DNA from: an uncultured Poribacteria bacterium
Lineage (GTDB): Bacteria; Poribacteria; WGA-4E; WGA-3G
Direction: 5' to 3'
Length of the DNA: 64,000 nt
NCBI GenBank assembly: GCA_951813565.1
Contig: OX638351.1
Coordinates: 4,928,001-4,992,000, forward strand
The number at the start of each line of letters is the position of its first letter. The first letter of the stretch is position 1. Under the pieces are notes generated by a model. That model saw only the letters and a list, made by a program, of their open reading frames with translations. It was not told the origin of the DNA and did not search any database. The position numbers and the translations under genes were made by a program. This document shows, piece after piece, positions 3,290-64,000 of the stretch.

Positions 3290-3468
3290 TGAGTGCCTCT
3301 CTTAGTCTTTTGTCATAATCAAGTTACCACATCTGTTTGCCAAAATCAACTGATTTTCGGTTTGACTTGAATTAACTATATATGGTAAAATCGCTTATGT
3401 ATTAAGGGAGTGGGCAGTAACACCACATTAACTTGATTCATATTTATGGAGCAGTTAGGAAAACGCAC

Positions 3469-3797
3469 CTTATGCGTCAATTTAAGGATATACCCTCTTG
3501 TGGGAGCGAATCAACGCAGCATGCGCGTTTGGCATGCTGCCAAATCAACGCCAAATGCGCTTTTTGGCATTTGTCCAAATCAACGCAGCATGCGCGTTTG
3601 GCATGCTGCGGGTTTTCAACCCCGATTTTCTTCTGTAGGAGCGACCTCCCGGTCGCGAGCTGGAGCTCGCTCCTACAGAATGTCCGAGGCGACAAGTCAT
3701 GGCGAATACCACGCGTATTCGCCCAAGTGCGCTTGGCGTTGATTTGGCAATGAATTGCACGACTACAAACGCTTTTTTTCTTAAATTGACAGTTATG
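3469..3797. mobile_element. CATAGG-type MITE inserted in a REP hairpin (degenerate copy)
   Basis: Ends CTTATGCGTCAATTTAAG / CTTAAATTGACAGTTATG; 20-bp flanking repeats at 3449-3468 and 3798-3817 (2 mismatches). Confidence 0.7.
3507..3609 (+). repeat. Three tandem 34-35-nt AATCAAC-hairpin units
   Basis: Units at 3507-3540, 3541-3575 and 3576-3609 split the REP GTGGGAG|GGGTTTTCAACCCCGA. Confidence 0.85.
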
Positions 3798-3917: not shown

Positions 3918-5063
3918 ATGAAAGAGAAACCAAAAGAAAAGCTCAATCAGACACTAGAACCTCCTGTAGATGAGGAGACAAACGGTTCAGATAAAAACCC
4001 AGAAACTGAACCTCCTATTGACACCTCAATTCAACACCAATTCAATGAACTAAAGCGCGATTATCTGAACGACCGTTCCAATTCAATTAATCGGTTGTTA
4101 GTCTTTATCTGCATAGTGCTTGTCTTTTTTACGATTGCAATTCCGATTGTAACAGGTATTGCCGCGTATTTAGTCTATGAAAAGTTTGAGAGCATACAAT
4201 CTCAAATGCTAATACATGTGAATGAAGCGAGCAAACAGGCTACCGAGGCAGAAAAACATGCTAACCAAGCTGCGCAATATCTAAAGGAAATAAAGGAGCA
4301 CCAAACCGAACTGAAAGTTATTATATCCAAGTTAACGAGTAAAGATTTCAGCAATCCGAATAAGGTTGAAATTTTCAAGACAACTATTGAAGGTATTCAA
4401 AAAAATCCTGACCTATCCCTTGAAGACAAGGCTATCATTGAGGCTTACAGACTGCAGAATGCTGGCGAAATTCCAGAAGCAATTGAGAAATGGAGATCTA
4501 TCGCTAATACTGCTAAAGGTTTCAATGACGATCTTGTCGCCCGTGCATTCTTCTCAATTGGCTACCTCCATTCTGAGCAAAATGAAAATGATCAGGCACT
4601 TTCTGCTTTCGACCAAGCAATTGAACTGATGCCAGATTTTGCTGATGCGTACACCGGTCGCGGTATTGTAAAAAGTGCACTTGGAAACGCTGAGGAAGCT
4701 ATTGCTGATCACGACGAAGCGATACGTTTGAAACCCGATTTTGCTGAGGCGTACATCAATCGCGGCACAGCGAAGCGCGCACTCAAAAAATATGAGGAAG
4801 CGATCGCTGACTTTGACGAAGCGATCCATCTTAATCCGAATTCTGCTTCTGCCTACACGCATCGTGGCGTGTCAAAGAATGCACTCGGTAAATCTCAGGA
4901 GGCGATTGCTGACCATGACGAGGCTATCCGTCTCAATCCGAATTTCGTTGAGGCATATATCAATCGCGGTGCAGCAAAGCGAGAATTGGGGCAGATGAGC
5001 GAAGCAGAGAAGGATATGCAAAAGGCATTGCAACTCGCGCAGGAGCAGGAGGAGAAGCCTTAA
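3918..5063 (+). CDS. Membrane-anchored TPR protein
   Basis: TM segment, coiled coil, then about 5 TPRs (EAIRLKPDFAEAYINRG). Confidence 0.9.
   Translation: MKEKPKEKLNQTLEPPVDEETNGSDKNPETEPPIDTSIQHQFNELKRDYLNDRSNSINRLLVFICIVLVFFTIAIPIVTGIAAYLVYEKFESIQSQMLIHVNEASKQATEAEKHANQAAQYLKEIKEHQTELKVIISKLTSKDFSNPNKVEIFKTTIEGIQKNPDLSLEDKAIIEAYRLQNAGEIPEAIEKWRSIANTAKGFNDDLVARAFFSIGYLHSEQNENDQALSAFDQAIELMPDFADAYTGRGIVKSALGNAEEAIADHDEAIRLKPDFAEAYINRGTAKRALKKYEEAIADFDEAIHLNPNSASAYTHRGVSKNALGKSQEAIADHDEAIRLNPNFVEAYINRGAAKRELGQMSEAEKDMQKALQLAQEQEEKP
4956..5060 (+). repeat. 105-bp direct repeat, copy 1 (3' end of the TPR gene)
   Basis: Matches 6728-6832 except one C/T difference (5036 vs 6808). Confidence 0.95.
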
Positions 5064-5092
5064 CATAATCTGCAGATTGAAATCTCTTTTTC

Positions 5093-5121
5093 TTGAAATC
5101 TTTCACAAATTGATGTATAAT
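5093..5121 (+). promoter_or_regulatory. Sigma70-type promoter for the higB cassette
   Basis: TTGAAA-17 bp-TATAAT. Confidence 0.6.
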
Positions 5122-5207
5122 TTTCGCGGTAATTAACACGATGGTAAGTGGAGGTTTATTTTTGCGTGTGATAACGTTCTTCCTATCAGAACATCTAAGT
5201 TCGCTTG

Positions 5208-5228
5208 TGTTATCAGCATTTGATAACA
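5208..5228. promoter_or_regulatory. Operator-like palindrome upstream of higB
   Basis: TGTTATCA-N5-TGATAACA perfect inverted repeat. Confidence 0.5.
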
Positions 5229-5270
5229 ATCGTTTACACTCGCAATTCGCATTTTTGAGATAGGTTGACA

Positions 5271-5612
5271 ATGCAGATTATTTTTGAACATAAACTTACT
5301 GAATTTGCAGAACGACATTCAACCTCCAGACCGGGACTTCTCCGTTGGATCAACTTGATACAACAAAAAAATTTCAGTTCGGTAACTGCATTGCGGGAAA
5401 CTTTTCCTCACGCGGACCTCGTAAAAAAAGAAACACATGTTCAACTAAGACATCAGGTTCCTTACAGCAACCGAGAAACAACGTTTACAGTTTTCAACAT
5501 TGGCGGTAACAAAGCGCGACTTATTACAATTATGCGATATAAGTCTCGGCAAGTTGTCATTCATGAAGTGCTGACACACGCCGAGTACGATGCATGGAAC
5601 AAGAAGAGGTAA
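5271..5612 (+). CDS. higB: HigB-family type II toxin (RelE fold)
   Basis: LRETFPHADLV...TVFNIGGNKARLI...LTHAEYDAW; an insertion of about 17 aa follows ADLV. Confidence 0.9.
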   Translation: MQIIFEHKLTEFAERHSTSRPGLLRWINLIQQKNFSSVTALRETFPHADLVKKETHVQLRHQVPYSNRETTFTVFNIGGNKARLITIMRYKSRQVVIHEVLTHAEYDAWNKKR

Positions 5613-5618
5613 CGAACA

Positions 5619-6710
5619 ATGTCAACTGGAATGCCAATTCCGAAAGATATATTGTCAACATTTACGCCTTTTGGACCATCAGTTTTAGATGCAGACGTCT
5701 TGTCAGATCAGGTGTTACATGCGTCAATACAACCTATTACCAAGAAATTTGTGCATGTTACGCCTTATCCGGAAAGTGCTGTTAAGTGGCTCATAAGTTT
5801 ATTAGACCTATTCGCTGGTATCGTGAATCGGAACGAAGACCTTAGTCGTATTGTAATAACGGAAACCGAGTACCAACAACTTTCAGAATTCTTAGACGAT
5901 TTAATCTATAGTGCCGGTGAAGACGAAAATCACCCCTTGTCGGCAACAATGACAATGGTCGGTATCCTTATTAAGATGTATGAGGATCAACATTTTCCAA
6001 AGTTAGATACACTCTTTCCTGAACTTGCAGAAGGTGCATCCGATGAAGCTGTTAGCAACAATAGGGATGCGACTACTACCATATCAGGACAGATTGACAC
6101 AGATTTTGTCATTGTACTCTTTTCGATTGGTTGTCTTCTTTGGACGGGCGGCAAGTTCAAAAAAGCTATTTCTGCCTATGACTTGGCAATTAGTATAAAT
6201 CCTGATTATGCCAGTATCCACACAAGTCGGGGTGAAGCAAAGTCCAGTCTAAATAACTTTACGGGCGCAAAGGAAGACCTCCAGAGTGCATTGAAACTCA
6301 CGGAAAAACAAGGAGAAGATAACTTCAGCACTGCCATTAAGGAACGACTTGAGGAACTTGATGTGGTAGAGGCTGCTGTTGCCTATCTTTCAGCATCCAA
6401 ATTCTCGAAATTTTCCATTCTTAGAGAGTGTAAAATCCAGATGGGAACAATCCATAGCAGAGCCGATATTGTGCTTTGCGATGCAGAAGGAAATTTTATA
6501 GCTATCGTAGAGTGCAAATTGCTTGCAGGTTCCGGACATGGTGAATATAATCACGAGCCACTAAAGAGTTATCTCTGTGCAACCGACACGCTATTCGGTA
6601 TATTTGCTTCTAACATAAATCCAGATTCATGGATTTTCTATGAAAATTTGCGTCACAATCGATTTCGGCAAATTAAGCGTTCTGATTTTGAGAAGCGGGT
6701 TCTTAAGTAA
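5619..6710 (+). CDS. HigA-like N-terminal domain fused to TPR and an HsdR N-terminal-like PD-(D/E)xK domain
   Basis: ITETEYQQLSEFLDDLI..ENHPL..LIKMYEDQHFP (HigA-like); AISINPDYASIHTSRG (TPR); RADIVL..IAIVECK..LKSYL (nuclease-like). Confidence 0.75.
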   Translation: MSTGMPIPKDILSTFTPFGPSVLDADVLSDQVLHASIQPITKKFVHVTPYPESAVKWLISLLDLFAGIVNRNEDLSRIVITETEYQQLSEFLDDLIYSAGEDENHPLSATMTMVGILIKMYEDQHFPKLDTLFPELAEGASDEAVSNNRDATTTISGQIDTDFVIVLFSIGCLLWTGGKFKKAISAYDLAISINPDYASIHTSRGEAKSSLNNFTGAKEDLQSALKLTEKQGEDNFSTAIKERLEELDVVEAAVAYLSASKFSKFSILRECKIQMGTIHSRADIVLCDAEGNFIAIVECKLLAGSGHGEYNHEPLKSYLCATDTLFGIFASNINPDSWIFYENLRHNRFRQIKRSDFEKRVLK

Positions 6711-6727
6711 GCGAATAATCTGATGCT

Positions 6728-6832
6728 TATATCAATCGCGGTGCAGCAAAGCGAGAATTGGGGCAGATGAGCGAAGCAGAGAAGGATATGCAAAAGGCAT
6801 TGCAACTTGCGCAGGAGCAGGAGGAGAAGCCT
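6728..6832 (+). repeat. 105-bp direct repeat, copy 2 (stranded TPR gene 3' end, continuing KVDGE*)
   Basis: Matches 4956-5060. Confidence 0.95.
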
Positions 6833-6898
6833 AAGGTTGATGGTGAGTAAAGGTTTTGATGGGAAGGTTATCCCTGTGCAGTGAAAAGGGGGTAAAAA

Positions 6899-8268
6899 AT
6901 GGATAAAAAACAATCGACTGAACTTGAACAACAAGAAATGATGTCGGAACATTCAGTGGAATCTGAGCAATCAGAAGATGCTTCTGATAACACGACTGGT
7001 GAAAATGTTTCCACTGATAAACGCAAAATTCTTGAACGTATTTGGACATTTAGTCTTCAGCATAAACTTTTTGCCGCTGTAACGTGTGTAGGTGTGCTTC
7101 TTGGTGGTATCGGTACATTTCTTCTCGGTATTGATGCAATTCGCCCTGATAGCTCAAATTTGAGTTTAAAGGGTGAAGAAATAGTAAAGTTCATTCAAGC
7201 TGTAAAATCCGATGAAATGGCACAAGTTGAAGAATCTCTGCAGAAGGTTGAGGAAAATAAAAGGCTTCTATTTTGGACAAGGCGGTGGTAGAAGCCTACA
7301 GATTGAAACAGGATGGGAAAATTGATGATTCCATCGAAAAATGGCGTTCTATTGCAAACATAGCTGAAGGAAATAATAACGATCTTGCCTCTGGTGCGTG
7401 GTTCTCGATTGGTTATCTCCATTCGCAGGAAGGTGAACGAAAAGAGGCTATTTCTGCATACAACGAAGCGATACGGCTAAAACCAGATTTTGCAAAAGCA
7501 TTTACTAATCGGGGTGCTGTAAAGCAAGAACTTGGTAGATATGAAGAGGCGATTGTTGACTATAATGAAGCAATACGGCTAAAACCAGATTATGCAAGAG
7601 CATACTACAATCGGGGTGTTTTTAAGTATGAACTTGGTAGATATGAAGAGGCGATTGTTGACTTCAATGAAGCAATACGGCTAAAACCTGATGATGCAGA
7701 AGCATACTACAATCGAGGTTTTGTTAAGTATAAACTTGGTAGATATGAAGAGGCGATTGTTGACTATAATGAAGCAATACGGCTAAAACCAGATTTGGCA
7801 AAAGCATATTACGATCGGGGTATTGTTAAGAAAGTACTTGGTAGATATGAAGAGGCGATTGTTGACTATAATGAAGCAATACGGCTAAAACCAGATGATG
7901 CAGAAGCATACTACAATCGAGGTTTTGTTAAGTATGCACTTGGTAAATCTGAAGAGGCGATTGTTGACTATAATGAAGCAATACGGCTAAAACCTGATTG
8001 GGCAGAAGCCTATATTATTCGCGGTAATGTAAAGGGTGAACTTGGTAGATATGAAGAGGCGATAGTTGACTGCAATGAAGCAATACGGCTAAAACCAGAT
8101 TTGGCAGAAACCTATATTATTCGCGGTGCTGCGAAAAGGATACTTGGCAATCATGAGGAAGCTAAAAGGGATTTCCAGTTCGCTTTGAAACTTGCTGAAC
8201 AGCAAGGAAACGATAACCTAAAAACTATTACAGAGAAGATGATTCAAGAACTTAAAGACAAAGAATAG
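6899..8268 (+). pseudogene. Membrane-anchored TPR protein split by a 1-nt frameshift near 7259-7263
   Basis: ORFs 6899-7291 and 7273-8268 join to give EENKKASILDKAVVEAYRL, matching the paralog's QKNPDLSLEDKAIIEAYRL, if one base is added in AATAAAAGG. Confidence 0.75.
7460..8170 (+). repeat. Seven tandem 102-bp TPR-coding repeats
   Basis: GAAGC(A/G)ATACGGCTAAAACC(A/T)GAT recurs every 102 bp; 7x EAIRLKPD. Confidence 0.95.
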
Positions 8269-11406: not shown

Positions 11407-12270
11407 ATGTCTAAACACCATCTCTATTATGGAGATAACCTCACAATTCTTCAGAAGTATGTTTCTGATGAGAGTATCAACTTAATATATATTGACCCAC
11501 CCTTTAACACTGGAAGGTATCGACTGCGTACTGAAATACAAGTTGAGCAAGATGATCAAGGTGACCGAGTGGGATTCCAAGGCAAGATATATAAAACTCA
11601 CAGAGGGAAAACCAGGCACTACTCTGATAAGTTCAAAAGTTCGGATGCCTATCTCGCGTTTTTGCGCCTCCGTTTTGAAGAGGCGTATCGAGTCCTGAAC
11701 CCGCAAGGTAGTTTTTTTCTACATATTGATTACCGAGAGGTGCATTACTGTAAAGTGATACTTGATGAAATTTTTGGGCGGGACTCCTTTGTCAATGAAA
11801 TTATTTGGGCTTACGATTACGGTGGGAGGTCTAAGTCTCGATGGCCTACCAAACACGATAACATCTTGTGGTACGCTAAAACACCGAAACATTATACCTT
11901 CAATTTTGATGAGATGGATCGGATTCCGTATATGGCACCGGGGTTGGTGGGTAAAGAGAAGGCGGCGCGAGGCAAAACACCAACAGACGTGTGGTGGCAT
12001 ACAATTGTTAGCACCAATGGACAAGAAAAAACCGGTTATCCGACACAAAAACCGCTCGGAATTCTTAATCGTATTGTCAAGGTGCATTCATCGCCAGGAG
12101 ATACGCTTTTGGATTTTTTTGCCGGTAGCGGATCGTTCGGGGAAGCTGCAGCGTTGCACAACCGTTCCTCAATTTTAATTGATAATAATATCCCGGCAAT
12201 CCACAGTATCATGAGTAGATTAGCGGTTTTTGGGGTTGAACTTGTCAATGCTGATTACGAAACTTTGTAA
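11407..12270 (+). CDS. Site-specific DNA methyltransferase (N6A/N4C, beta class), orphan
   Basis: Catalytic DPPF precedes YPTQKP and the SAM-binding DFFAGSG. Confidence 0.92.
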   Translation: MSKHHLYYGDNLTILQKYVSDESINLIYIDPPFNTGRYRLRTEIQVEQDDQGDRVGFQGKIYKTHRGKTRHYSDKFKSSDAYLAFLRLRFEEAYRVLNPQGSFFLHIDYREVHYCKVILDEIFGRDSFVNEIIWAYDYGGRSKSRWPTKHDNILWYAKTPKHYTFNFDEMDRIPYMAPGLVGKEKAARGKTPTDVWWHTIVSTNGQEKTGYPTQKPLGILNRIVKVHSSPGDTLLDFFAGSGSFGEAAALHNRSSILIDNNIPAIHSIMSRLAVFGVELVNADYETL

Positions 12271-12413: not shown

Positions 12414-12477
12414 GTAGGAGCGATCTCCGAATCGCGACGAAACTCACTGATAGTCGGGAATCGGAGTTCCCTCCTAC
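12414..12477. repeat. REP pair (GTAGGAGCGATCTCCGAATCGCGA / TCGGGAATCGGAGTTCCCTCCTAC)
   Basis: Same composite appears inverted at about 17104-17163; parts also at 38013-38111. Confidence 0.75.
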
Positions 12478-12592: not shown

Positions 12593-12745
12593 ACCCAAGT
12601 TGCTACCTATATCGCGAATGCTCTTGTAGGAGGGGTTTCTAACCCCGATTTAGAATAAAAAACATAAGAATCAGCGAAAAAGCCTTGTTTTTTCAGTAAA
12701 AAGCAGTGTTTGCTAACTTGAAATCTTGTCCGTAGCAACTTAGGT
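12593..12745. mobile_element. IS982-like MITE with 7-bp TSD TATTATA
   Basis: TIRs ACCCAAGTTGCTAC / GTAGCAACTTAGGT; TATTATA at 12586-12592 and 12746-12752; sister copy at 40756-40905. Confidence 0.88.
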
Positions 12746-14294: not shown

Positions 14295-14465
14295 AGAGTG
14301 AATTTGACTAAAGTCCGAAGTGAATCGAAACCGAGTGCGTGTTTGGTATTTAGCGGATTACTATCGGGCTTATAAAGCCTTCCCACACAAGAAAGAATAA
14401 ACGCTAAATTGACACCTATAGATATTTTAAGGTTCAACCCAACCTGCACGCTGTTTGGAGTTTAG

Positions 14466-16103: not shown

Positions 16104-16158
16104 AAATTTACTTATTTGGCTAATTACGAGTTATCAAATACACTTGAAAGAAGGAAAA

Positions 16159-16674: not shown

Positions 16675-16784
16675 TTTTGTGTAGGTTTAAAATAAAAAAT
16701 CAAGCGTAGGTTGGGTAGAGCGTAGCGAAACCCAACAATTCAACCGTTGGGGTGTAAAATAGTTGGGTTTCACGTTGTTCTACC

Positions 16785-16985
16785 CATAGGCGTCAATTTA
16801 GTGCCTGATTTTCTTGTGGGAGGGCTTTCTAAGCCCGATATTGTGAGACTCAAACCGTTATATCGGGGTTGAAAACCCGCCAAATGCCAAAAAGCGCATT
16901 TGGCGTTGATTTGGCAGCATGCCACACGCGCATGCTGCGTTGATTCACTCCCACAAGAGGATATATCCTAAAATTGACACCTATG
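16785..16985. mobile_element. CATAGG-type MITE inserted in a REP hairpin, 19-bp TSD
   Basis: Ends CATAGGCGTCAATTTA / AAATTGACACCTATG; GGTTTCACGTTGTTCTACC at 16766-16784 and 16986-17004. Confidence 0.85.
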
Positions 16986-18350: not shown

Positions 18351-18603
18351 CATAGGTGTAAACTTAAGAAAAAAATGCTGGATTTTTTCTTGTGGGAGGG
18401 CTTTCTAAGCCCGATAGAATACTCGGACATTGTGGGAGGGAGACCTTGTCCGCCCGATTGAACGAGATTCAAGCAGAAAATCCAAATCAACGCAGCATGC
18501 GCGTATGGCATGCTGCGGGGTTGAAAACCCGCCAAATGCCAAAAAGCGCATTTGACGTTGATTCACTCCCACAAGAGGATATATCCTTAAATTGACACCT
18601 ATG
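18351..18603. mobile_element. CATAGG-type MITE inserted in a REP hairpin, 19-bp TSD
   Basis: Ends CATAGGTGTAAACTTAAG / CTTAAATTGACACCTATG; GGGTGTCGCAAGCTCTACC at 18332-18350 and 18604-18622. Confidence 0.85.
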
Positions 18604-24484: not shown

Positions 24485-24605
24485 CAGAGCCATTCAATTC
24501 TCCAATAATTTCTTCTTTTTCCTAATACCTCTTCTTGTAGGAGCGAGCTCCAGCTCGCGACCATGTGCAAAATGTTGAGAAAAACTCAACAATTGAATGC
24601 CTCTG
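24485..24605. mobile_element. CAGAG-ended MITE B (contains a REP), in tandem with A
   Basis: Ends CAGAGCCATTCAATT / AATTGAATGCCTCTG; third TSD copy at 24606-24615. Confidence 0.8.
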
Positions 24606-36648: not shown

Positions 36649-36729
36649 TGTTTACGGCACACGGAGTGTGCCTACTACTATGCAGATTTTGTTTACGGCA
36701 CGCGGAGTGTGCTTACTACTTTGCAGATT
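36649..36729. repeat. Tandem 41-bp REP-containing duplication
   Basis: TGTTTACGGCAC(A/G)CGGAGTGTGC(C/T)TACTAC..GCAGATT twice; same REP class at about 32535-32560. Confidence 0.8.
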
Positions 36730-37900
36730 AATCAATAATAGCCTGATATGTTAGCACTCGGAATTGGGGGTGGAACGGTGCTTCGCCAATTAATTGTGTC
36801 ATCAAGATGCCGATTAATTCTTCAACAGGGTCAATCCAAAATGTAGTGCTTGCAAGACCACCCCAACTGTAAGTGCCTAAAGAACCGAGACTGTGTGTAT
36901 CAGCAACATTAGTAACAACAGCAAATCCTAAACCGAAACCGCTTCCGCTTCTCCACAGCGGTTGCCAATCATCAGGGATATGATTCATTGTGATAAGTTC
37001 AACTGTTTTTCTACCAATTATGTGAACACCGTCTAATTCACCTTCGTTAAGCATCATTTGGCAAAAGCGGAGATAATCTGCAGCGGTTGACTGCAACCCC
37101 GCGCCGCCAGCATGGAAAAAACTAAGCGGTCCACTTGAAACAGGCGCATTCTCTAACACCTGAATACCACCCTCTTCCGTGGGTTCATATAACGTTGCAT
37201 ACCTGTCAGCTTTTTCTTCTGGAACAGAGAAGTCTGTATCTATCATGCCTAAAGGTTCAAAAATACGCTTTTTCAAAAACTCTGCAAATGGTATACCTGA
37301 GACTACTTCCACAAGGTAACCGAGAACATCGGTAGACATGCCGTAATTCCATGCGTCGCCCGGATGATGTAGAAGCGGGATATTACCGAGTTCACTTGCC
37401 ATGTGTGCAAGATCACCACTGAAAAAATCCGCCTCTCTATACCGGTCATTAATCGGGTGCATCCAGTCGCCACCATAGATGAGACCTGCGGTATGCGTGA
37501 GTAAATGCTTTACTGTCATCTCTCGTTCCACGTCAACAATAGCATCGCCATGATTGGCGTAAACCTTCATGTCTTTGAAAGCGGGAATAAATTCGGATAC
37601 GGGTGTATTGAGTTGAAAATTCCCCTCTTCATAGAGCATCATCACAGCAACGCTGGTAATCGGTTTTGTCATTGAGTAGATGCGGAAGATGGTATCAAAT
37701 TCTATCGGTTTGACGGATGCAACATCCTGCATGCCGAATTTTTCAAAATGAACGAGCCTGCCTTCACGCGCAATCATCGTCAAAGCACCAGGGATTTTTC
37801 CGTCGTCTACCCAGCGTTGCATCGCAGGTGCAATCCGTTCTAACCGCGCTGCGGACATGCCGACTTCTTCAGGCACCGCGCGCGGAATTCCATAATCCAT
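36728..37900 (-). CDS. Serine hydrolase, beta-lactamase family
   Basis: IFRIYSMTKP (SxxK), LLTHTAG, WNYG, SWGG. Confidence 0.92.
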   Translation of the reverse strand: MDYGIPRAVPEEVGMSAARLERIAPAMQRWVDDGKIPGALTMIAREGRLVHFEKFGMQDVASVKPIEFDTIFRIYSMTKPITSVAVMMLYEEGNFQLNTPVSEFIPAFKDMKVYANHGDAIVDVEREMTVKHLLTHTAGLIYGGDWMHPINDRYREADFFSGDLAHMASELGNIPLLHHPGDAWNYGMSTDVLGYLVEVVSGIPFAEFLKKRIFEPLGMIDTDFSVPEEKADRYATLYEPTEEGGIQVLENAPVSSGPLSFFHAGGAGLQSTAADYLRFCQMMLNEGELDGVHIIGRKTVELITMNHIPDDWQPLWRSGSGFGLGFAVVTNVADTHSLGSLGTYSWGGLASTTFWIDPVEELIGILMTQLIGEAPFHPQFRVLTYQAIID

Positions 37901-38147
37901 AAGTCTGTTTCTCCTCAGTTAATAACCTAAGTTGTTGGTGTCAGATTAAGTGGCAACATAGATCTGTTGTTGCTGATTACACTATTGCTGTGTCCATTCA
38001 ATTTTATGGTAATGTCGCTATTCGGAGATCGCTCCCGCTGGATGCCATACGCGCATTCAGCGTTGATTCACAGAACAACCCTCTTTGTAGGAGGGAACTC
38101 CGATTCCCGATTACTTTGGAGACTCACAATTTAGAGTGGACATAGCA

Positions 38148-39392
38148 CTATTTCTCTGCATCAAGCAAAGCCTGATATGTGAACTTCCTGAATTCCCCTT
38201 GAAAAGGATAACGGTTATTCATAAGCTGCGTCATCAGAATCCCTATGAGTTCTTTTTCTGGGTCAATCCAAAAGGTTGTGGCAGCTGCACCGCCCCAACT
38301 GTATGCCCCTGTAGACCGTTTATTTTTATCGTCATCCTTACGGGTCACAACATGGAATCCGAGTCCGAATGCCCCATCTTTGCCATACTGATGATGTGGG
38401 TAACGCATCAGTTCAACGGTATCGGATTTTAAAATGCGCACGCCATCCAATTCACCACCATTGAGTAACATCTGACAAAAACGGAGATAATCCGCAGCAG
38501 TTGAAACGAGTCCACCGCCTCCCGAAGGGAAGAAGGATACATCATCGTTTGCAAGCGGCGCGTTTCTCGCAAGTCTAAGTCCACCTTCTTCTGTAGGTCT
38601 ATACAACGCAGCAAATCGCTCTACTTTTACCTGCGGAACTGAAAACGCTGTATCTACCATGCCGAGTGGTTTGAAAATCTTCGTCTGTAAAAATTCTTCA
38701 AACGGCATATCGGAAACAACCTCAACAAGATAACCGAGTACATCCGTAGAAACACCGTAGTTCCACCTTTCGCCGGGTTCGAAAACAAGCGGGATATCTC
38801 CCAGTTTCTCTGCCATCTCTGCTAAACCTGAACCGCGTTTAAAAATTTTCAGTTCACCATAGAGTTTATCAATAGGTTTGTCGCCCCACCCGTAAGTTAA
38901 TCCGGAAGTGTGGGTCAGGAGATGTTTCACTGTCATCTTATTTTTTGCGGCATGGGTTTCTGTCTGTTCTTTGTTGTATACCTTCATGTCTTTAAAGGCA
39001 GGTATATACATTTCAACGGGATCATCAAGTTGCAAACGCCCTTCATCATAAAGTACCATCACAGCAACGCTTGTAATCGGTTTTGACATTGAATAGATAC
39101 GGAATATCGTATCGGGTTCAACCGGTTTTTTATTTTCAACATCTCGCATGCCGATGGTTTCAAAATGTGCAATTTTCCCTTTCCTCGCTATGACAGTCAA
39201 GAATCCGGGTAGTTGTCCTTTGTCGACGTAACCTTGCAGCGTAGGTGCGATTTCTTGCAGTCGTTCAGCGGAAACACCAACATCCTCTGGTGCTGCCATC
39301 GGCAGGCCGTGCTCTTGCAGGACTGTAGCGGTTCCACAGGCGAGTATACCGATGCAGAAAACGAATAATAATATGGACTTTAGATTTCTCAA
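38148..39392 (-). CDS. Serine hydrolase, beta-lactamase family (probable lipoprotein)
   Basis: ILAC lipobox-like motif; IFRIYSMSKP, LLTHTSG, SWGG. Confidence 0.92.
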   Translation of the reverse strand: MRNLKSILLFVFCIGILACGTATVLQEHGLPMAAPEDVGVSAERLQEIAPTLQGYVDKGQLPGFLTVIARKGKIAHFETIGMRDVENKKPVEPDTIFRIYSMSKPITSVAVMVLYDEGRLQLDDPVEMYIPAFKDMKVYNKEQTETHAAKNKMTVKHLLTHTSGLTYGWGDKPIDKLYGELKIFKRGSGLAEMAEKLGDIPLVFEPGERWNYGVSTDVLGYLVEVVSDMPFEEFLQTKIFKPLGMVDTAFSVPQVKVERFAALYRPTEEGGLRLARNAPLANDDVSFFPSGGGGLVSTAADYLRFCQMLLNGGELDGVRILKSDTVELMRYPHHQYGKDGAFGLGFHVVTRKDDDKNKRSTGAYSWGGAAATTFWIDPEKELIGILMTQLMNNRYPFQGEFRKFTYQALLDAEK

Positions 39393-40937: not shown

Positions 40938-41143
40938 TATAGTAAAATCTAAAATTACTTGGACAGTTCTTTATAGGTTTGATGTGTTTGTAGTCGCGCA
41001 ATTCATTGCGCCTCTTCCTGTGAATCAACGCCAAATAAGCGTTTAGTATTTGTCGGGAGCGAGCTCTAGCTCACGACTTTAAAACTGTAGGACACTTTGT
41101 CCGTGCCGAGTGACAATGTCCAGTTAATTGTAAAATCCACTAT
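40938..41143. mobile_element. TATAG-ended MITE-like shell containing REPs and one 34-nt unit
   Basis: TATAGTAAAATCTAAAATTACTTGGACA ... TGTCCAGTTAATTGTAAAATCCACTATA. Confidence 0.6.
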
Positions 41144-49023: not shown

Positions 49024-49237
49024 AAAATACCTCCTGGTATATAGTAAACCTATAATTATCCTTATATTTTTGTGCTCTGGCGGCTTTTAACTTACTACTG
49101 ATGGATGAATGTAAGAAGCGCAATGAATTGCGCGACTACAAACACTTCTGTTATTTTGCATTTGTTCAAATCAACACTAAATGCGCTTATAGTGTTTGTT
49201 GGGTTTCACTACGTTCTACCCAACCTACAATACTGTG

Positions 49238-58374: not shown

Positions 58375-59994
58375 ATGGAAAACACAAAAGGGAGGATTCT
58401 GTGGATTGATAGCGCATTAAGAGTACCATTGGCAAGCCCATATTTGAAGTCTGAGTTGAAGCTTTATGTTCGGTTTTTAGAGTATCACGGATATGATGTT
58501 GTGGTAACAGATAACGGTGTAGAAGGGATCGCTTTGCTCAGAGAAAAAACATTTCACGCTGTACTATTAAATTATGAATTGCCAACACGCAACGGGGACA
58601 TGCTCTCACGCACACGAAAAGAGGACGCACACATTCCTGTCATTCTGCTGACTAAAGTCGGTGGACAAGAGATAATGGAGAAAGCGAGCCTTCATGGTGT
58701 TAACGATGTTTTGATAATGCCTACAAACCCCAGACAGTTGGTTTCATCACTCGCATTTTTACTTGAAAAACAGAACATGCGAGAAACATATACACCGCAA
58801 GCGTACGTCAAGAACTTTAATAAACAATACGCTTTGGAACACAGTCAGACACATACTTTGTTGGATGAACTTCATGATAAGGACTGGCAGGCGTGGATAG
58901 ATGCTTATGTCCATTTTGTTGAATGGGATATCAGATTGGATTCTCTTTCTAACGTTGATGAGCTTAAAACTATCCATGCCAGTGAAAAACGTGAAGCCAA
59001 CTCCGCTTTTGCTGACTATATCCAAAACACCTACAGTTTATGGCTTGACGATGAAAACTCGCCTGCATTATCCGTAGATGTTTTTTACAAATATGTTATT
59101 CCAGAGATACAGATGGGAAAATCCGTGCTGTTTGTCGTAATGGATTGTATGCGGTTGGACCACTGGTTGAAAATTGAGCCGCTGCTCTACCGTGATTTTC
59201 GCATCACAAAACACTATCACTATTCTATTTTACCGACAACGACCCGTTATGCTCGGAATGCTATTTTTAGTGGTCTTTTTCCGAGAGATTTAGCCGAAAG
59301 ATACCCTGAGTTGTATGCTGAACCCGATGAGGGACATACAAGTATTAACCGTTATGAGAAAGAACTCCTATATTTACAACTTGAGCGACATGGGATAGTC
59401 TTAAAACCATCGCCACATTATTTCAAGATTTTTGATGCGCGCGGGGAAATTCAATATTTACAGTGGTTAACTGACGCAAACCGGATTAGTTTGGCAGCAG
59501 TTGTCGTAGATTTTCTTGACATGCTGACGCACCTACGGAGTGAGGAGTCTCTCTTTCAACAACTCATTCCGAATGAAGAAGCGTTTCGGACACTTGTACA
59601 AACGTGGTTTCAGAGTTCACGTCTCTATAAAATAATTAATCTTGCAGCTGAACGTGGAACAACCATAATAATTACATCGGATCACGGATCAGTGTTGTGT
59701 CAAAACGCTGCGAAAATTTCGAGCCATCACGAGCTTACCAGTGGACTTCGAGCAAAAGAGGGCAAAAACATATCATGTGCCCCTGAAGCTGGATTGCTCA
59801 TAGATGATCCGGAAGCATATCGGTTACCAGGCGATGCAGCAGCAAAAAACTACATCATTGCGAAAGAAGATTATTTTTTTGTTTATGAAAGGCAGTTTAA
59901 CGTATATAAAGAAATGTTTGAGGGCAGCTTCCAACATGGAGGCATTTCATTTGAAGAGATGATTCTTCCCTGTGTTGTGCTTGAACCGAGGTGA
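58375..59994 (+). CDS. PorX-like receiver-PglZ protein with a degenerate receiver domain
   Basis: WD(I)RLD..EANSAF linker; VMDCMRLD, ILPTTTRYARNAIFSG, TSDHG, FQHGGISFEEM. Confidence 0.85.
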   Translation: MENTKGRILWIDSALRVPLASPYLKSELKLYVRFLEYHGYDVVVTDNGVEGIALLREKTFHAVLLNYELPTRNGDMLSRTRKEDAHIPVILLTKVGGQEIMEKASLHGVNDVLIMPTNPRQLVSSLAFLLEKQNMRETYTPQAYVKNFNKQYALEHSQTHTLLDELHDKDWQAWIDAYVHFVEWDIRLDSLSNVDELKTIHASEKREANSAFADYIQNTYSLWLDDENSPALSVDVFYKYVIPEIQMGKSVLFVVMDCMRLDHWLKIEPLLYRDFRITKHYHYSILPTTTRYARNAIFSGLFPRDLAERYPELYAEPDEGHTSINRYEKELLYLQLERHGIVLKPSPHYFKIFDARGEIQYLQWLTDANRISLAAVVVDFLDMLTHLRSEESLFQQLIPNEEAFRTLVQTWFQSSRLYKIINLAAERGTTIIITSDHGSVLCQNAAKISSHHELTSGLRAKEGKNISCAPEAGLLIDDPEAYRLPGDAAAKNYIIAKEDYFFVYERQFNVYKEMFEGSFQHGGISFEEMILPCVVLEPR

Positions 59995-63625: not shown

Positions 63626-63730
63626 TATGAAGATAAAAAAATAAATTCGGTATTTTCCTTAGTCCCGCCAAATGCGCGTGTGGCATTCAGCGGGACTGAA
63701 GAGCGTTTGACATATTCAGAATATATCTAA

Positions 63731-64000
63731 TACCACATTAACTTGATTCATATTTATGGAGCAGTTAGGAAAACGTACCTTATGCGTCAATTTAAGGATA
63801 TACCCTCTTGTGGGAGTGAATCAACGCAGCATGCCCGTCCGGCATGCTGCCAAATCAACGCCAAATGCGCTTTTTGGCATTTGTCGGGTTTTCAACCCCG
63901 ATTTTCTTCTGTAGGAGCGACCTCCCGGTCGCGAGCTGGAGCTCGTTCCTACAGAATGTCCGAGGCGACAAGTCATGGCGAATACCACGCGTATTCGCCC
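63731..64000. mobile_element. Second copy of the composite MITE at 3421 (cut by window edge)
   Basis: Near-identical to 3421-3724 but with two instead of three 34-nt units. Confidence 0.85.

Follow-up and report, generated by a model that had tools for sequence, protein, structure and literature searches.

The window analyzed here, the whole 64,000-nt stretch of DNA at G000:C1:4928001-4992000 of the single 5.43-Mb contig (43% GC) of an uncultured Poribacteria bacterium (genome G000), carries a family of hairpin units that is real, mobile, and lineage restricted and that, at 33 to 36 nt, ranks among the smallest mobile DNAs seen. The unit is a non-coding, non-autonomous mobile element that is inserted whole and without target duplication at C/G(G)-type sites (a slash in a motif marks the point of insertion or cutting), and hundreds of copies now lie in other repeats, in copies of the unit itself, and, with the reading frame kept, in ordinary genes of these sponge-symbiont Poribacteria. 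Since each insertion forms the target anew, units stack and nest; whole REP mosaics then amplify them, and slippage lengthens the stacks.

The G000 genome contains 472 units in 378 stacks, of which 318 are single and the longest has nine units. A chance origin is excluded, because a stricter count of paired units finds 410 in G000 and none in either the reversed or the complemented genome, and because the stems covary, as described below. In a scan of the phylum, the unit pattern was present in 88 of 176 genomes, with 39 of 39 congeners, 85 of 111 genomes of the family, and 2 of 64 genomes outside the family being positive, and the reversed pattern matched once. A GTDB-wide scan matched at least 118 loci, and among the 80 matches listed, 78 are titled Candidatus Poribacteria and 2 are uncultured. 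Near-identical DNA was found in nine sequencing runs from four studies, two labelled sponge metagenome, and the contigs compared from four of the nine runs all break at repeats. An Rfam search of the window gave no match, and three matches in a viral scan all lacked the hairpin when inspected by eye. Unit orientation in G000 shows no clear strand bias relative to replication or neighboring genes, and the GC skew is too weak for placing the origin.

The Type I unit consists of one or two variable bases, the leader AATCAAC, and a hairpin of 25 to 27 nt (25 nt in 306 and 26 nt in 123 of 429 units) that is built from a 9-bp stem, a bulged G, a closing C-G pair, and a 4- to 5-base loop. The leader is exact in 456 of the 472 units. 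Stem covariation, which an earlier note made from the letters of the window alone had pointed out, is confirmed: in 61/62 distinct stems, 8 of 10 pairs vary on both sides, a level reached by 0 of 500 shuffles, which is to be read as support and not as a probability, since the aligned stems are related and the pattern used to select them restricts part of the columns. The invariant leader and the covarying stem together imply that a folded single strand is recognized. Read on the leader strand, the mismatches in 79 stems comprise 53 A.C, 32 G.T, 46 Y.Y, and 6 R.R, which favors the tail strand as the folding strand. Raw folding energies slightly favor the leader strand (103 versus 32 hairpins), but this bias is gone for imperfect stems (mean of -0.29 versus +0.02 kcal). 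Two sister types accompany Type I in G000. Type II shares the leader and has another hairpin, ending in CCCC (136 intact copies), and Type III, to which about 95 of 130 leaderless hairpins belong, has the bulged hairpin core of Type I and ends in a 3' ATG tail. The three types nest in one another, to three levels. In addition, hairpin variants with other tails are nested in the units of relatives at L037 (G073), L059 (G095), and L073 (G076), which suggests that more than three sister types exist.

All 13 units listed in the earlier note are present in the window with the coordinates, strands, and lengths given there (Table 1), and a 14th, at 3691-3746, had been overlooked. None of the 13 has a target duplication, as had been claimed. 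The claim that removing units restores REPs to within 1 nt also holds, the restoration being exact at GGAG/GGG, AATC/GGG, and GTT/GGG and 1 nt off at 38037 and 41021, and the four empty REPs named for comparison (12626, 12414, 16706, and 24537) exist. The second composite copy, at 63728-64000, is 96% identical to the first and has two units, not three. Beyond these repeats, the window contains three consecutive TPR genes with 102-bp tandem repeats (3918-8268; a 112-bp duplication lies at 4949 and 6721), an orphan N6/N4 DNA methylase gene (11407-12270), two adjoining beta-lactamase-family genes about 71% alike in parts (36728-39392), and a gene for a receiver domain fused to PglZ (58375-59994).

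Table 1. Units, host REPs, and composite repeats in the window
Feature	Position	Strand	Remark
Composite REP mosaic holding the three-unit stack	3418-3724	+	Repeat families D3, D5
Host REP left half, GTGG foot, cut at GGAG/GGG	3500-3506	+	Empty form at 12626
Type I unit, first of stack: CG + AATCAAC + 25-nt hairpin, GCAGCATGC stem	3507-3540	+	
Type I unit, second of stack: CA + AATCAAC + 26-nt hairpin, GCCAAATGC stem	3541-3575	+	
Type I unit, third of stack, GCAGCATGC stem	3576-3609	+	
Host REP right half, GGGTTTTCAACCCC stem	3610-3623	+	
14th Type I unit, in GTAGTCG-type REP at TTGC/GCC, split by nested Type III hairpin, then GCC	3691-3746	-	
Type III element nested in the 3691-3746 unit; leaderless, 3' ATG tail, shortened loop	3698-3723	-	
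Empty host REP, GTAGGAGCGA class	12414-12437	+	
Empty host REP, GTAGGAG-GGG class	12626-12646	+	
Degenerate Type I unit, then GGA	14321-14354	+	One contig covers it in each of 4 runs
Empty host REP, GTAGGTTGGG class	16706-16736	+	
Two-unit Type I stack (16914-16947, then 16879-16913); REP site as at 3507	16879-16947	-	
Type I unit at AATC/GGGG, one REP stem end	18483-18516	+	
Type I unit, opposite end of the 18483 unit's REP stem (inverted pair)	18531-18565	-	
Empty host REP, GTAGGAGCGAG class	24537-24560	+	
Type I unit in GTAG foot; net gain 33 nt, target A to G	38037-38070	-	Empty class at 12414
Type I unit in GTAG foot; net gain 33 nt, target A to G	41021-41054	+	Empty class at 24537
Type I unit between rpsP and ffh	49167-49200	+	Filled and empty orthologues
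Two-unit Type I stack in second composite copy	63817-63885	+	

The shared target is about C/G(G) rather than GGG, and REPs do not seem to be required. The earlier note had described insertion next to GGG in REP stems, which is too narrow, since units also lie in coding DNA without a nearby REP. GGG does follow every stack formed by the 13 listed units, with GGA after the degenerate one, but it is over-specific genome-wide, where the 3' flanks of the 378 stacks are GGG in 271 and GCC in 27. Among 50 right-flank families distinguished for Type I and 14 for Type II, the base after the hairpin is G in 43 and 13, respectively, and in the Type I families, positions +2 and +3 are G in 32/50 and 30/50. 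CA-leader units in 27 distinct contexts have C at -1 in 20 and G at +1 in 21, with no strong signal farther out. Within host hairpins, units are inserted in the foot, the arm, or the loop and on either strand, so a position in a REP stem cannot be taken as the rule. High-copy repeats make up 34 of 58 right-flank families versus 44% of intergenic GGG sites, a weak enrichment.

The two junctions are asymmetric. The hairpin side is exact, and the leader side carries one or two bases that follow the host base, CA occurring after C and TG or CG after G or T. No target duplication is seen at filled and empty pairs; the net gain is exact at C/G sites, and one base is replaced at AGG sites. In four GTAG-foot families with AGG sites, all 223 empty copies have A and all 19 filled copies, which may descend from few events, read G-unit-GG, the A being replaced. 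A fifth AGG host, with 19 empty and 2 filled copies, shows the same A-to-G pattern. This rule has exceptions: the host CCCAT/AGG retains the left A and gains a right G, and in the OGG-family glycosylase gene described below, most intact alleles have A after the hairpin, with G in G000 and in three decayed alleles.

Stacking follows from the target itself, since the last C of a unit and the G of the host re-create C/G and thereby explain head-to-tail growth. Copies of the 3507-type site hold no unit in 37 cases, one unit in 18, two in 24, three in 4, four in 1, five in 2, and six in 1, and all 82 inner units of these stacks begin with CA. Array orders in G000 are A-B (26 times), A-B-A (4 times), longer alternating (3 times), and homopolymer arrays of up to nine units. 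The recurrence of A-B and the alternating and homopolymer arrays indicate that many copies come from duplication and the amplification of whole composites. In the window, the GTGGGAG/GGGTTTTCAACCCC site occurs four times, with 1, 2, 2, and 3 units, as the earlier note had counted, but these copies are not four independent events, and the A-B-A order at 3507-3609 probably arose by duplication within an A-B doublet. Longer stacks are due partly to slippage, of which 11 double-leader and 3 leaderless forms are signs.

Mobility is well supported by sites that are filled in some genomes and empty at the orthologous position in others, and by units inserted in frame into genes. The genome-wide search and comparison of sites suggested in the earlier note yielded about 470 units in G000, empty sites, and 3' flanks that are mostly GGG. 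Its view of a minimal mobile unit, as opposed to the end of a longer element, is sustained by paralogous and orthologous empty sites and by the gene insertions. Among paralogues in G000, empty copies number 30 for GGGAG/GGG, 37 for CATTGC/GC, 20 for CCCTAC/GGG, and 61 for AAATC/GGG, and these four classes are restored exactly when 34 to 35 nt are removed. For the unit at 49167, the same REP is filled in G106 and G104 and empty, by exactly 34 nt, in G087 and G089; these are the 4 informative genomes of 19 relatives. In one of the others, a comparable context holds a decayed unit, and the remaining 14 lack the host. Between the window genes at 16144 and 17212, 3 of 29 relatives are informative, G106 being filled at TTGC/GCC and G096 and G084 being empty.

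Genes provide further pairs, in which in-frame copies add 11 to 12 residues to the host proteins. Across 30 genomes, the OGG-family glycosylase gene is empty in 16, carries an in-frame unit of 33 nt in 11, and retains a decayed insert of the same length in 3, and the intact insert alleles form one clade with moderate support (82/62). Of six genomes, three have a Type II unit of 36 nt in the lipoate-protein ligase (LplA) gene, and the other three are empty there. An ISAs1 transposase gene has a 36-nt unit beside a conserved DAL motif in three G000 copies (G000:C1:3912536-3913327 and two paralogues; two other copies are internally deleted across the region), G089 has a different 35-nt variant at the same base, and the 12 other relatives compared are empty. 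The filled ISAs1 alleles of G000 and G089 group with different empty sisters (100/99 and 100/100), so two independent insertions probably occurred at one base; with 24 CGG sites in the element, the shared base points to a hot spot or to conversion between IS copies. No GT[AG]G-type REP was found within about 2 kb of the ISAs1 site or near the LplA site, and one lies 348 bases from the OGG site. A third in-gene candidate, at G000:3012388, has no clear orthologue in five relatives, and a further candidate at G000 379667 is weak. Fourteen other unique-flank sites entered only the alignment.

The search for a moving enzyme centered on Y1 genes, which are present in 36 of 40 genus genomes. G000 has 10 Y1 matches (five IS605-type, two subclass 1.2, and three RAYT). 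The transposase or recombinase gene flanked by unit ends that the earlier note had called for did not appear: units bracket 0 of the 10 Y1 genes in G000 and 0 of 70 genus Y1 loci, all of which were pattern scanned and 28 of which had their flanks read by eye, and inspection by eye of 12 genes flanked by leaders on each side showed nothing that looks like a transposase. Units lie on one side only in six Y1 loci. Most host REP classes adjoin a RAYT or subclass 1.2 gene somewhere in the genus. The RAYT clade, present in 89 of 176 genomes, and subclass 1.2, present in 101 of them, were rejected as cognates of the unit, as neither follows its distribution; the main RAYT clade and subclass 1.2 are common in the unit-free families f2 and f3 and are missing from some unit-rich genomes. 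The genus Y1 loci L041-L080 include many RAYT clades, each with its own REP, whose feet extend to GTTG, GCTG, and GTCG. Genus subclass 1.2 TnpA genes, a group described as being without REPs, are flanked by tandem short hairpins, for example, of the CCCTACGGG class. The Y1 classes used here follow PMC6006769.

G000 also has an active IS605 family, with a full copy near C1:228250-230010, target TTAG or TTAA, and end TGAC, that comprises a small number of tnpA+tnpB copies, some 20 copies with tnpB only, and short non-coding derivatives. The resident IS605 ends were rejected as the source of the unit, being unrelated to it. The IS200/IS605 guide rule, in what we take to be its pairing map, fits both resident IS605 ends and does not fit the unit; applied to the CAAC of the unit, the same presumed rule predicts a site at neither junction. 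One mini-IS605 of <50 bases (G000:C1:918775-918813, minus strand; one copy) consists of the left-end start, one hybrid hairpin, and the right-end tail, and follows TTAG, showing that one-hairpin derivatives of Y1 elements do arise in G000.

Enzymes of other classes were likewise considered. IS110, rejected as the mover, is absent from G000, one tyrosine recombinase match was found there, and a Y2 search gave 0 matches, as did its control. Reverse transcriptase (RT) was found in only 18 of 40 genus genomes and was not found in the unit-rich genomes G104, G087, G089, G091, G107, and G088 (92 to 97% complete). G000 has two RT genes. One, at L156 (G000:C1:3988991-3996420), is a stand-alone RT (465-amino-acid frame) next to a 54-repeat CRISPR array and a separate cas1, and the other, at L157 (G000:C1:811737-813284), is a defence RT of the DRT4 type. 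In G076, G077, G092, and G110, there are 12 to 17 RT matches each, many of them long frames on small contigs or clustered, possibly due to host (sponge) contamination of the bins. The second G000 CRISPR array, of 48 repeats, lies near another cas1, and no unit occurs among the spacers of the two arrays. One of the 12 leader-flanked genes, a cas1 with units on both sides, was set aside as a coincidence, as its units are ordinary REP-hosted ones.

Taken at a probability of about one-half, our main reading is that the unit moves as single-stranded DNA through a trans-acting Y1 HUH enzyme and that nick-primed copying or repair finishes one end. The moving strand would probably be the tail strand, read as the hairpin and then GTTGATT. 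The hairpin and tail would be bound by a Y1 HUH nuclease that belongs to the RAYT/TnpA superfamily and is encoded at another locus; this nuclease would nick the target 3' of C, and the free 3' end of the target would be joined to the donor, or would prime copying across it, from the hairpin foot. Such joining or copying would account for the precision of the junction on the hairpin side and for the G found in place of the target A, and the tail end would be finished less exactly (0 to 2 extra bases and 1-base microhomology) by a sloppy second cut or host repair. The unit would have no function beyond spreading. According to the RAYT literature, RAYTs cut 3' of C, with C/T, C/A, and C/C shown, and cleavage needs a REP bound in cis and acts over at least 400 bases (PMC3333891, PMC3479197, PMC8266576); nick-primed extension belongs to the published BIME model (PMC3333891). 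On the tail strand, the main target classes present C/T, C/C, or C/G at the hairpin-side junction, which fits RAYT-like cutting. The HUH-like transposition put forward in the earlier note is thus plausible with respect to this junction, but other features do not suit it. The tail junction of the common CA type does not lie at a C/N step, and this imprecise junction, the lost target base, and the REP-free ISAs1 site do not fit RAYT cutting. Also counting against the HUH reading are the replaced A, since strand transfer by HUH chemistry alone would leave every target base in place, the failure of the guide rule, the absence of a unit-bracketed Y1 gene among the loci scanned, and the presence of units in both orientations within REPs.

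Other explanations distribute these observations differently. A tentative possibility is a third mode of single-stranded DNA transposition, in which the hairpin and the 7-base tail would be the whole cis requirement, a non-cognate or domesticated HUH or a host enzyme would act on them, and nick-primed copying would overwrite one target base. We consider it unlikely that the mover is a different enzyme altogether, such as another HUH class, an integron-integrase-like recombinase acting on folded single-stranded DNA, or a host enzyme, the outcome being unchanged. That no Y1 gene is tied to the unit by position or distribution speaks for it, as does a match by eye, at six of seven positions, of the leader and its complement to what we take to be the integron core consensus (RYYYAAC and GTTRRRY), but the single tyrosine recombinase match and the absence of IS110 in G000 speak against it, as do the 12 leader-flanked genes. 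Enzyme-free template switching during replication, primed on 2 to 3 bases of GG or CC homology and returning at 1-base microhomology, would explain why a donor G replaces the target A and why the leader dinucleotides follow the host base, as expected from flanking homology, and slippage on these repeats is evident from the alternating and homopolymer arrays and the double-leader and leaderless forms. However, 1 to 3 bases of homology are too little for so exact a unit in 50 unrelated contexts, and the invariant leader and compensated stems are signs that a protein reads the unit, so this route seems distinctly improbable.

Target-primed reverse transcription leaves one exact and one ragged junction. 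The unit has just such a pair, and G000 has two RT genes, but spread through a leader-strand transcript that is reverse transcribed from a target nick can be given little credence, since those genes are CRISPR-linked and of the DRT4 type, RT is missing from many genus genomes, six of them unit rich, and the wobble polarity favors the opposite, tail strand. The least probable explanation, to which we attach hardly any weight, is that the unit is not independently mobile and instead belongs to RAYT-built REP mosaics as a module or forms one end of a longer IS. Most copies do ride in amplified REP composites, the enrichment in repeats being weak, but exact insertions in unique coding sequence with empty orthologues largely refute this explanation; moreover, both flanks vary, the resident IS605 ends are unrelated, and the unit has neither a GT[AG]G nor a CGTC foot.

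Small dispersed repeats SDR1-8 of Nostocaceae were reportedly described by Elhai et al. in 2008; they are said to be 21 to 27 nt long, confined to Nostocaceae, and nested in themselves, and RNA-mediated, target-primed spread has reportedly been proposed for them. Judged from these descriptions and from citing papers, Nostoc SDRs appear to be the closest precedent of the unit (PMC4390886, PMC2884548, PMC3116915). The citing texts give insertion of SDR5 between bases 3 and 4 of HIP1 (PMC4390886) and an SDR length of about 20 (PMC2884548). As represented in these sources, both kinds of repeat are very small, non-coding, and dispersed, have a conserved fold with compensatory changes, insert precisely at short sites in other repeats, and nest in themselves. 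The unit differs in its length of 33 to 36 nt, its fixed 7-nt single-stranded tag, its C/G(G) target, the base replaced at AGG, and its occurrence in Poribacteria. The earlier note did not recognize a described element, which holds for the sequence family, of which no description was found in the literature searched (subscription papers and supplements were outside its reach), but not for the kind, given the Nostoc SDRs.

The unit resembles REPs, BIMEs, and REPINs and their RAYTs, as portrayed in the literature, in its size, bulged imperfect hairpin, hundreds of extragenic copies, occasional in-frame gene insertions, and junctions 3' of C on one strand (PMC3733652, PMC3116915, PMC3333891, PMC3479197, PMC8266576, PMC6006769), the last applying to the hairpin-side junction of the main classes on the tail strand and not to the tail side of the CA type. 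It differs in having no GT[AG]G or CGTC foot, its foot being CAAC on one strand and host derived on the other, and no REPtron, none of the G000 and genus Y1 loci scanned being bracketed by units. Unlike a REPIN, it is a single hairpin that inserts alone in genes and stacks head to tail, with no inverted doublet, and it parasitizes REPs rather than being one. Like IS200/IS605 elements, it makes no target duplication, and its hairpin and 8- to 10-base tail resemble right-end geometry, whereas it has one hairpin only, a 2- to 3-base target, one imprecise junction, and an unmet guide rule. Its asymmetric ends, without terminal inverted repeats, and the lack of target duplication distinguish it from MITEs, and it matches no spacer of the two G000 CRISPR arrays. 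Rickettsia palindromic elements and intragenic REPs share in-frame insertion into working protein genes, and the former, at about 105 to 146 bp, contrast with the mostly intergenic unit of 33 to 36 nt (PMC3733652, PMC3184786).

The means by which REPs and SDR-like repeats spread have long been in question, since it is rare for the moving unit and its junctions to be defined. The present family has a defined unit and target, defined empty alleles, and a junction rule that is not trivial, and the genus gives a short list of HUH candidates, so oligonucleotide cleavage and joining assays are directly possible. If the enzyme is found, the unit would be a minimal scarless insertion tag. If the third mode of transposition holds, the same chemistry may explain SDR-like micro-elements in other phyla, and the three mutually targeting sister types would form a parasite layer on the REP/RAYT system. 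For the host bacteria, the short peptides written into a DNA glycosylase, a lipoate ligase, and a transposase are a source of protein variation.
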